Virus record (IMG/VR): IMGVR_UViG_3300030330_003356
Coordinates: 20,988 to 84,987 of that record
Origin: a virus
Taxonomy: Duplodnaviria; Caudoviricetes
Length of the DNA stretch: 64,000 nt
Direction: 5' to 3' (one strand)
The notes beneath the pieces were generated by a model that saw nothing but the letters and a program-made list of their open reading frames with translations, did no database searches and was not told where the DNA came from. The first letter of the stretch is position 1. Each line of letters opens with the position of its first letter. Positions 62,392-64,000 of this stretch are shown one piece after another. Both the position numbers and the translations under genes were made by a program.

Positions 62392-62553
62392 ATGCCACGT
62401 AATCAAATTACTGTTGCAGAGATCAAAACAAAAGTAGAGAAAATTAAAAATGAACTCTACTGGGAAGAAGGAAAGTATGGAGAAGAAGCAAGAGGTTTAG
62501 CACATAAATATGTCAACATGGTGCTAGACGCTATTGATGAGTATCGAATGTGA
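62392..62553 (+). CDS. 53-aa hypothetical protein
   Basis: MPRNQITVAEIKTKVEKIKNELYW...; ATG directly after a 9-bp hairpin. Confidence 0.6.
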   Translation: MPRNQITVAEIKTKVEKIKNELYWEEGKYGEEARGLAHKYVNMVLDAIDEYRM

Positions 62554-62995
62554 TTATGAAAACCCATGGTATTTTGAGGGAACCCCTTTTTTATCTGAGA
62601 ATATTGACGATAACTTCGGTTTTGTCTATCTCATTACAAATCTCTCAAACAATCGCCAGTACATCGGCAGGAAATACTTTTGGCAGTTTAGAACTCCAAG
62701 AGGTAAAAAACGAAAAGTAAAATCTGAATCTGATTGGAAAAAGTATTATGGTTCTTGTCCAGAACTTAAGGAAGACATTATCAAATTCGGCAAGCAAAAT
62801 TTTAGCAGATCTATTATCAGTCTTCATAAGACGAAGGGCAAAACTAATTTTGAAGAAACCAGACAACTCTTCATCAACGGAGTCCTCACCGAATCCCTTG
62901 ACACAGGAGAACCCAAATACTATAATAGCAACATCCTCAGCAGATACTTCCGAAAAGATTATTATGGAGACGGATGTGGTGATGCAAGCTCGTGA
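62534..62995 (+). CDS. GIY-YIG family endonuclease-like protein
   Basis: GFVYLITN...QYIGRK, YYGS, FSRSII, E and YYNSNI in GIY-YIG order. Confidence 0.75.
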   Translation: MMSIECDYENPWYFEGTPFLSENIDDNFGFVYLITNLSNNRQYIGRKYFWQFRTPRGKKRKVKSESDWKKYYGSCPELKEDIIKFGKQNFSRSIISLHKTKGKTNFEETRQLFINGVLTESLDTGEPKYYNSNILSRYFRKDYYGDGCGDASS

Positions 62996-63167
62996 TTGGG
63001 CTATCAAACGTATTGAAGAGATGGCAACAACCGAATCAGTAGATCAAATCTACGATAGACTTGCGATGATGGATGAATGGTACGAATGGTTCGATCTTGA
63101 CAAAATGGATGGAATGGACTATATTGTACTCGAAGACACAACTCAGAATTCTGAGTCAGAGATCTGA
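62964..63167 (+). CDS. 67-aa acidic hypothetical protein
   Basis: METDVVMQARDWAIKRIEE...DEWYEWFD; internal ATG of the 62748 track ORF. Confidence 0.6.
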   Translation: METDVVMQARDWAIKRIEEMATTESVDQIYDRLAMMDEWYEWFDLDKMDGMDYIVLEDTTQNSESEI

Positions 63168-63178
63168 GTCTTCTTTCT

Positions 63179-63251
63179 GGGTACGTAGCATAATGGATAA
63201 TGCCCCCGCCTTCTAAGCGGTAGATTGTAGGTTCGAGTCCTACCGTACCTG
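63179..63251 (+). tRNA. tRNA-Arg(TCT)
   Basis: Acceptor GGGTACG/CGTACCT, D arm GCAT/ATGC, loop CT-TCT-AA, T arm GTAGG-TTCGAGT-CCTAC; no encoded CCA. Confidence 0.92.
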
Positions 63252-63303
63252 CTAGGCATTAAGAGAGTCCCACCACCACTCCTCTCTTATGTAAGTCCTT
63301 ATC

Positions 63304-63375
63304 GCGGGATTAGTTCAGTGGTAGAACGTCAGCCTTCCAAGCTGAATGTCGTCGGTTCGAGTCCGATATCCCGCT
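63304..63375 (+). tRNA. tRNA-Gly(TCC)
   Basis: Acceptor GCGGGAT/ATCCCGC, anticodon arm TCAGC-CTTCCAA-GCTGA, TTCGAGT loop. Confidence 0.95.
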
Positions 63376-63377
63376 TA

Positions 63378-63492
63378 ACGGATTGGCGACATCCGTGCTC
63401 ACATTTCCGAGATAAAAAAGAATCGGAGCAACAACCCATGTGAGAGAGGGGTGGGATCCCCCTTGGTGCTACCGCTGCTGACGAGTAGCGGT
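63378..63492 (+). ncRNA. Candidate structured non-coding RNA between tRNA-Gly and tRNA-Asn
   Basis: Five helices folded by hand in 115 nt (see findings); no plausible ORF. Confidence 0.6.
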
Positions 63493-63501
63493 TATTCTTA
63501 A

Positions 63502-63574
63502 TCCTCTATAGCTCAGTTGGTAGAGCAGGTGACTGTTAATCACCCTGTCCCTGGTTCGAGTCCAGGTGGAGGAG
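63502..63574 (+). tRNA. tRNA-Asn(GTT)
   Basis: Acceptor TCCTCTA/TGGAGGA, anticodon arm GGTGA-CTGTTAA-TCACC, T arm CCTGG-TTCGAGT-CCAGG. Confidence 0.95.
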
Positions 63575-63577
63575 TAC

Positions 63578-63649
63578 GGGAGTTTGGCGCAGCGGTAGCG
63601 CATCTGCTTTACACGCAGCTGGTCACTGGTTCGATCCCAGTAACTCCCA
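63578..63649 (+). tRNA. tRNA-Val(TAC)
   Basis: Acceptor GGGAGTT/AACTCCC, D arm GCGC/GCGC, loop TT-TAC-AC, T arm ACTGG-TTCGATC-CCAGT. Confidence 0.92.
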
Positions 63650-63673
63650 TTCCCTCTAAGAGGTTTATGAAAA

Positions 63674-63922
63674 ATGATTACCGTAAGATGCAAAGAATGT
63701 GGAAAGGAATTGACTTCCACTAGTAAGGTACAATTCTGTGGTTGTCCCAACCAAGTAAGAGTTGTGGACAATAAAGTTGGTGCTGTTGACTTAGAGAAAG
63801 TTGTAATGGTATCCAACAACGTAGAGAATAAGATTAATAGTCATTTCTCTAGAACAGAACTTCTCTACCAAGAGGAGAGACGTAGACGCAAGGTTCGTAG
63901 ACTGGATTTTGAAGTCAAATAG
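63674..63922 (+). CDS. 82-aa Cys-containing (Zn-binding-like) hypothetical protein inside the tRNA cluster
   Basis: RCKECG...FCGCPN; basic C-terminus RRRRKVRRL; GAGG upstream. Confidence 0.7.
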   Translation: MITVRCKECGKELTSTSKVQFCGCPNQVRVVDNKVGAVDLEKVVMVSNNVENKINSHFSRTELLYQEERRRRKVRRLDFEVK

Positions 63923-64000
63923 GAAGAGTGGTCGAGTGGTTTATGGCACTGGTCTTGAAAACCAGCGAGGGTGCAAGTCCTCCGTGGGTTCAAATCCCAC
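63922..64000 (+). tRNA. tRNA-Ser(TGA), 3'-truncated by the window edge
   Basis: GGAAGAG-TGGTCGAGTGG, anticodon arm CTGGT-CTTGAAA-ACCAG, long variable arm, T arm GTGGG-TTCAAAT-CCCAC. Confidence 0.92.

Follow-up and report, generated by a model that had tools for sequence, protein, structure and literature searches.

Does the 126-nt interval that separates two tRNA genes in the genome of a marine phage encode an RNA of its own and, if so, what might such an RNA do? The interval is located close to the end of the window, that is, the stretch of 64,000 nucleotides analysed here, which is part of an 85-kb IMG/VR viral record. The window derives from a T4-like Synechococcus myophage whose nearest relative is phage Bellamy, with 90.6% identity over the tRNA array and 96% identity over the interval in question. 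T4-like cyanophages have as their host Synechococcus, a marine picocyanobacterium that is both abundant and photosynthetic, and the tRNA arrays of these phages are usually regarded as codon-usage aids only.

A structured element between tRNA-Gly and tRNA-Asn

The last 900 bases of the window are occupied by a tRNA array on the + strand, as indicated by both ARAGORN and Rfam. The initial annotation of this locus, made by hand folding, placed between two of the tRNA genes an RNA with five helices, P1 to P5. The features of the array and of the element are the following.

63097-63125, + strand: sigma-70-type promoter, putative in function (TTGACA, 17 nt, TATATT; 11 of 12 consensus matches), ~50 nt before tRNA-Arg
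63179-63252, + strand: tRNA-Arg (TCT), the first in the array; ARAGORN; Rfam tRNA model, 65.2 bits
63304-63375, + strand: tRNA-Gly (TCC), with the element beginning right after its last base; ARAGORN; Rfam tRNA model, 73.7 bits
63376-63501, + strand: the whole structured RNA, comprising a 2-nt leader, P1-P5 and a 9-nt tail; covariance model R1, 146.8 bits over the full model length; fold z = -3.2
63378-63396, + strand: P1 hairpin, 63378-83 with 63391-96; UGG in the loop is invariant
63398-63444, + strand: P2, 63398-404 with 63438-44; encloses P3 and an asymmetric internal loop
63405-63428, + strand: P3, 63406-10 with 63423-27, closed by the wobble position 63405/63428 and capped by the 12-nt A-rich loop 63411-22
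63429-63437, + strand: 3' strand of the internal loop, with the near-invariant CAACCC at its end, of which CCC (63435-37) would take part in the proposed pseudoknot
63446-63464, + strand: P4 hairpin, 63446-51 with 63459-64; 7-nt loop UGGGAUC (63452-58)
63465-63470, + strand: conserved single-stranded linker GGUGCU; columns 95, 99 and 100 of alignment A3 are nearly invariant
63471-63501, + strand: P5 terminator-like hairpin and tail UAUUCUUAA, 63471-79 with 63484-92, GACG loop; the tail reaches tRNA-Asn
63502-63574, + strand: tRNA-Asn (GTT), beginning where the element ends; ARAGORN; Rfam tRNA model, 66 bits
63578-63649, + strand: tRNA-Val (TAC); ARAGORN; Rfam tRNA model, 66.5 bits
63922 onwards, + strand: tRNA-Ser, only the start of the gene being in the window

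The promoter at 63097-63125 probably drives the tRNA array. Just 5' of the array, there is a 153-aa ORF (62534-62995, +) that encodes a full-length SegE-type GIY-YIG homing-endonuclease domain (PF19835, E = 9e-55); this gene may partly account for the shuffling of array modules between phages. A second sigma-70 promoter (62898-62926, +), matching the consensus at 12 of 12 positions, lies within the endonuclease ORF. The 51-nt spacer between tRNA-Arg and tRNA-Gly (63253-63303, +) folds into a hairpin of 8 bp whose loop is C-rich (-9.9 kcal/mol, z = -2.1). Between tRNA-Val and tRNA-Ser, an 82-aa ORF (63674-63922, +) encodes a protein with a CxxC...CxC cysteine pattern that is kept in Bellamy and S-SM2 as a hypothetical protein and has a single, weak Pfam match (DUF7695, under the cut-off).

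The element spans the entire interval from tRNA-Gly to tRNA-Asn: the tRNA ends called by ARAGORN bear out the claim of the initial annotation that the gap is filled completely. All five hand-folded helices are found at the positions originally assigned to them. The minimum-energy structure predicted by ViennaRNA for 63376-63501 has an energy of -44.2 kcal/mol and recovers P1-P5. The corresponding value for 200 dinucleotide shuffles is -33.2 +/- 3.4 kcal/mol (z = -3.2), and none of the shuffles folds as well; the opposite strand of the element folds more weakly (z = -1.8). The other properties ascribed to the element hold as well. Its GC content (50.8%) is above that of the window (39.4%) and near that of the flanking tRNAs (53-58%). 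It contains no credible ORF, as all overlapping ORFs of at least 30 aa extend also into tRNA genes. Neither is there a tRNA cloverleaf: ARAGORN calls four tRNAs, none of them within 63376-63501, and the Rfam tRNA model (RF00005) has no match on the element even at E <= 10. No pairing joins the two ends of the element.

The initial annotation did not assign this RNA to a family, and a search of Rfam 15 (4227 models) leads to the same result. In the window, only tRNA models pass the gathering threshold, none of them on the element. When matches with E <= 10 are considered for the region 63100-64000, the only one inside the element is TMV_UPD-PK1, with 17.5 bits (E = 1.8), the gathering score of this model being 33.

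Homologues, compensatory changes and invariant loops

A blastn search with the 126 nt alone detects the element in 11 distinct Synechococcus myophage isolates that represent at least five named Kyanoviridae genera (carrier isolates: Bellamy, Sf-CH1b, Sf-CH11/1a, S-SCSM2R, S-8S53, Sf-FR1, S-CAM3, S-CREM2, S-SCSM1 and S-H34). In these isolates, there is no deposited annotation over the element. Two independent motif scans of IMG/VR, the first with a motif in the P3 loop and the second with a motif that spans the junction to the P4 loop, yielded at least 119 contigs each. The covariance model R1, built from the isolates found by blastn, identifies one and only one full-length element at each of 142 additional loci, with scores of 46-154 bits, and one copy per genome in all five complete genomes (5/5). 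The collected loci comprise 113 distinct element sequences.

Homologues in hosts were sought by a fixed-motif scan of prokaryote genomes, one genome per species. Across 185,579 prokaryote species, the second motif has one match, on a 501-bp MAG contig; within the reach of this motif, the family appears to be viral. Two relatives, S-SM2 and SynMITS9220M01, possess a syntenic tRNA array without the element, which indicates that the element is accessory and dispensable, similarly to individual tRNAs. The syntenic Gly-Asn site of S-SM2 contains a different spacer of ~150 nt (L157 1404-1555), which has no R1 match and whose fold shows no advantage over shuffles (z = -0.4); at this site, the coordinates deposited for tRNA-Asn appear to be shifted.

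Comparison of the 113 distinct homologues, the approach suggested along with the original fold, reveals covariation in all five helices. Standard pairs account for 99.3% and 98.4% of the cells in two model-based alignments, and double-sided changes are found in 17 and 19 of the 33 pairs, respectively. The covariation scores of these alignments are 0.337 and 0.365, compared to 0.124 and 0.129 for column shuffles (0/500 reach the observed value), whereas registers slid by 1-3 columns score 0.04-0.08. Both alignments were fitted to the covariance model and are thus biased in its favour; the same compensatory changes are visible in a plain MAFFT alignment of the isolates.

In P1, both sides change in three of the five stem pairs in alignment A3 and in four in A4. 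In P2, pairs 33/69, 31/71 and 34/68 of A3 change on both sides, and 99.8% of the cells are paired. Four pairs of P4 change on both sides, with 100% of the cells paired, and so do all seven modelled pairs of P5. In the first set, P3 shows no change, having been held constant by the search motif; among the contigs gathered with the motif outside P3, TCCGA/TCGGA is replaced by TCCAG/CTGGA in three loci (L142, L137 and L136), which amounts to two compensated pairs. The outermost pair of P3, at the boundary with P2 (63405/63428), is U.G in the window sequence. Across the family, 99 sequences have C.A at this position and 12 have U.G, the two never being mixed, a pattern that marks a conserved wobble geometry. 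G.U cells number 163 and A.C cells only one, an asymmetry which indicates that selection acts on the fold in the RNA of the tRNA (+) strand rather than on DNA or the opposite transcript.

The conserved part of the element is a 95-nt core that consists of P1, the P2-P3 arm with its A-rich loop, and P4. It is the unpaired segments that are near-invariant, namely, UGG in the P1 loop, the 12-nt loop GAGAAAAAAGAA, CAACCC in the junction, UGGGA in the P4 loop and G..GC in the linker, while the stems drift. In the IMG/VR set, the first motif imposes part of the P3-loop invariance, which accordingly rests mainly on the 11 isolates found by blastn and 11 new loci found with the second motif. CAACCC is kept in 103 of the 107 distinct sequences scored, and GGG of the P4 loop in 106 of the 107. 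As originally pointed out, UGGG of the P4 loop (63452-55) is complementary to CCCA (63435-38), and a pseudoknot formed by these segments is sterically plausible. Both proposed strands, CCC and GGG, are kept in 105 of the 107 sequences, which leaves no variation for covariation. The two single exceptions, S-H34 and L048, break the pairing with no compensation, and the lone loop-loop double change, seen in L084 and L049 (junction A to G and loop U to C), does not follow the register of this pseudoknot.

Two other readings of the core were considered and rejected. An anti-Shine-Dalgarno function of GAGGUGGGAUCC in P4 is ruled out because the stem bases drift by compensation. Pairing of UGG-N in the P1 loop with the N-CCA end of a neighbouring tRNA, in the style of the T-box or RNase P, would link the fourth loop base to the last base of a flanking tRNA, but the two are not consistently related for the tRNA on either side, as far as can be judged from a noisy discriminator extraction.

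P5 belongs to several unrelated types, in both sequence and length, and is absent in S-H34. Wherever present, it is followed by (U/C)AUU and about five further bases, so that the tail is only a weak U-tract. P5 passes a simple intrinsic-terminator scan (9 pairs, 5 G-C, tail TATTCTTAAT), although family-wide only (U/C)AUU is conserved, and the tRNA starts 9-10 nt later. With a tRNA gene directly after the tail, termination at P5 cannot be complete. We read P5 as a replaceable 3' hairpin that may serve for protection or for partial termination. A hammerhead reading of CUGACGAG in P5 was also rejected: this sequence is the tip of a covarying hairpin, no stem II or stem III follows it, and the other P5 types lack it.

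The 113 distinct homologues, the five covarying helices and the lack of an Rfam match all agree with the initial view that this is a functional non-coding RNA outside the known families, inserted in a tRNA operon. The element represents a new RNA family, a phage tRNA-cluster small RNA with unusually strong comparative support.

Ends of the element and explanations for its position

Among the collected loci, there are 127 non-redundant contexts, and the 5' side can be assessed in 118 of them. In 98 of these 118, the element starts at most 3 nt past the 3' end of a co-oriented tRNA (0-1 nt in most contexts); 93 of the abutting tRNAs are ARAGORN calls, and five were recognised by eye from the T-arm and the acceptor end. 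In L019, L114, L115, L123 and L132, a clear tRNA 3' half that is not called by ARAGORN abuts the element and might belong to an unusual or truncated tRNA. In the remaining 20 contexts, the element is preceded, at a distance of 5-9 nt, by a sequence match to a promoter of the form TTGnnn, 16-18 nt, TAnnnT, which in most cases is the exact consensus TTGACA-17-TATAAT; Sf-FR1 and S-CREM2 are among the phages with such a promoter. None of the 118 contexts has neither an abutting tRNA nor a promoter. This promoter-or-tRNA rule for the 5' end of the element is new here; by this comparison, the 5' boundary is identical whether it would result from processing or from initiation.

On the 3' side, a tRNA is found within 6 nt in 95 of the 118 contexts; 107 contexts have one within 60 nt, and 117 have one within 2.5 kb. 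The element is the first member of the array 20 times and the last one at most once; where it leads the array, it has a promoter of its own. The upstream tRNAs are of six kinds (Asn, Thr, Gly, Ala, Arg and Leu) and the downstream tRNAs of seven (Asn, Thr, Val, Ala, Pro, Leu and Gly); in the same arrays, tRNA-tRNA spacers without the element have a median length of 3 nt. The presence of a tRNA or a promoter on the 5' side, combined with that of a tRNA on the 3' side, suggests an independent RNA gene that is handled like a tRNA, that is, packed and shuffled in the same manner. The proposal in the initial annotation that the RNA is cut out by tRNA-processing nucleases can be maintained in part. 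The ends of the element match tRNA ends in most contexts, which is an argument from position, whereas in the 20 contexts with a promoter, the 5' end would be a transcription start instead.

These observations can be brought together in the following explanation. The element would be a ~126-nt single-copy non-coding RNA gene of marine T4-like Synechococcus myophages (Kyanoviridae), the mature RNA of which binds a factor in trans. We consider this explanation, taken as a whole, to be somewhat probable; the part that identifies a non-coding RNA gene is highly probable, and the part that posits trans-acting binding falls slightly short of being probable. The element would be transcribed early by the host RNA polymerase, on the tRNA strand, either within the tRNA array or from its own sigma-70 promoter, and it would need no signal of its own to define its ends. 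The predicted 5' end is either the cut that frees the 3' end of the upstream tRNA (by RNase Z, or by RNase E followed by trimming) or the transcription start, and the predicted 3' end is the one left when RNase P cleaves at the next tRNA, an end that P5 would protect. A stable RNA would accumulate, and the mature RNA would present a fixed three-dimensional surface, with the invariant loops binding a host or phage protein or a small ligand, most plausibly in the area of translation or tRNA metabolism. It is the combination of invariant loops with drifting stems that points to action in trans through factor binding.

A more specific version of this explanation can be put forward tentatively: the 95-nt core could be a new high-information RNA fold, of aptamer or ribozyme grade, that is expressed early with the tRNAs to bind a specific host molecule. 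The candidates for such a molecule include a factor of translation or tRNA metabolism, a nuclease of a tRNA-targeting defence system and a small-molecule signal.

The main rival explanation, which we regard as rather unlikely, is that the element is a cis-acting leader or attenuator, with P1-P4 sensing a signal and P5, together with the U-rich tail, setting the read-through into the downstream tRNAs in a riboswitch-like manner. The terminator-like character of P5 and its tail, the order of promoter, element and tRNA in 20 contexts, and the near-constant presence of a downstream tRNA (107 of the 118 contexts within 60 nt and 117 within 2.5 kb, with the element last at most once) are all compatible with this possibility. 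However, the P5 types are unrelated between subfamilies, and P5 is missing in S-H34, while the core is invariant, so that a conserved anti-terminator pairing between the core and P5, as expected of a riboswitch, is impossible. Furthermore, the tail of (U/C)AUU and variable bases is a weak U-tract, and the element is in the middle of the array in most contexts. The downstream tRNA also differs from phage to phage, so there is no common gene to be regulated.

An unlikely alternative is a structural spacer or processing aid that would insulate the pre-tRNAs from misfolding, or recruit RNase P, Z or E, and would then be degraded. Such a role fits an element that is located exactly between tRNAs and whose ends coincide with processing sites, and other spacers in these arrays form hairpins, too. 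Nevertheless, the 3-nt median of the spacers without the element implies that these tRNAs need no insulator; near-invariant loops and a fixed architecture next to six upstream and seven downstream kinds of tRNA exceed what an insulator would need; and in the 20 contexts with a promoter, there is nothing upstream to insulate.

HDV-like theta ribozymes have been reported behind phage tRNAs, and the element has features that small ribozymes typically show, namely, its size, the possible pseudoknot and a large number of invariant unpaired nucleotides. The start of the element 0-1 nt past the tRNA in most contexts would likewise suit a new self-cleaving ribozyme class with a part in the cutting of the tRNA precursor. 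Such a class is nevertheless very unlikely: no Rfam model, ribozyme families included, matches the core at E <= 10, host RNase P and RNase Z already explain both cuts, and the 20 contexts in which transcription starts at the 5' end leave nothing to be removed by cleavage. Finally, the element could be taken for the decayed remnant of one or two tRNAs, for a recombination site, a homing site or another element acting at the DNA level, or for a fold that arose by chance, considering the location in a tRNA array beside a SegE-type homing endonuclease gene and the superficial resemblance of three hairpins with single-nucleotide gaps to a cloverleaf, but the negative results of ARAGORN and the Rfam tRNA model, the compensatory changes with 163 G.U versus 1 A.C, which bespeak single-strand RNA-fold selection, and the persistence of the element across 113 distinct sequences leave this reading with a negligible probability.

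Relation to known RNAs

Among known RNAs, those closest to the element are the small stable RNAs RNAC (species 1, rnaC, 139 nt) and RNAD (species 2, rnaD, 119 nt) of the phage T4 tRNA cluster, the biological roles of which are still unknown (PMC3014915; PMC9697503). Like the element, these are structured RNAs other than tRNA that are encoded on the tRNA strand inside a T4-type tRNA cluster and abut a tRNA gene, and in both cases, a GIY-YIG homing endonuclease gene is found in or beside the cluster, segB in T4 and the SegE-type gene here. The differences, however, are substantial. The T4 RNAs are located at the end of the cluster, past the last tRNA, whereas the element is almost never last; they are classed as late RNAs (PMC9697503), whereas the element has an early-type sigma-70 promoter in 20 contexts; and the folds differ, rnaC ending in a T-arm-like hairpin. 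No homology to rnaC or rnaD is detectable in the scores of R1 on the T4 region (69000-75000), which stay below 5 bits: with filters off, the best match has 4.5 bits (E ~1) and is outside rnaC and rnaD, and the second-best match (3.9 bits, E 1.3) overlaps just the 3' end of rnaC.

Another group of RNAs to consider consists of the covariation-defined motifs of Weinberg et al. 2010, namely, manA (RF01745), wcaG (RF01761), PhotoRC-II (RF01717) and the glutamine riboswitch, which are found almost only in marine metagenomes and T4-like cyanophages (PMC2864571). As described there, these motifs reside in the 5' UTRs of protein-coding genes, with a presumed cis-regulatory role, whereas the element is flanked by tRNAs, not mRNAs. 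None of these families matches the element at E <= 10, the manA model included. The initial annotation cited manA as an example of a phage motif found next to tRNA genes; the main text of PMC2864571 contains no such statement.

Y RNAs (YrlA, RF02553; Ro60/Rsr) are small structured RNAs that occur within phage tRNA clusters (PMC4201824). The element lacks the closing stem between the 5' and 3' ends that is typical of Y RNAs, and the sole YrlA match in the region (63225-63327) is outside the element and has 14.3 bits against a gathering score of 69. In architecture, the element resembles bacterial small RNAs, with a conserved 5' domain, a variable GC-rich 3' hairpin and a U-rich tail, but unlike in those RNAs, the tail runs straight into a tRNA gene. 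Neither a published description of a cyanophage tRNA-cluster RNA similar to the element nor a transcriptome of a carrier phage was found in the literature covered; a 2023 catalogue of 10,006 viral candidate RNAs could include the element.

The presence of a strictly conserved, single-copy, promoter-equipped RNA gene with invariant loops means that these arrays are subject to selection beyond decoding. If the core indeed binds a host molecule, the element would become the first RNA of a phage tRNA cluster to which an activity can be assigned and would provide a handle on the role of T4 RNAC and RNAD. It is also a better test case than the two T4 RNAs, with 113 natural variants that define the fold. 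The clean boundaries allow simple deletion and trans-complementation, and cultured phage-host pairs exist, for example, Bellamy on WH8109, and S-SCSM1 and S-SCSM2R on WH7803. The family is ready for submission to Rfam as a new family.

In S-CREM2 (L008 712-756), a ~45-nt module of two hairpins (CCAGGAC..GUCC and GCAGGU..ACCUGC) is present between the tail of the element and the next tRNA; the same module is found in L019, L031, L077, L032, L072 and L086 and looks like a separate small RNA module.
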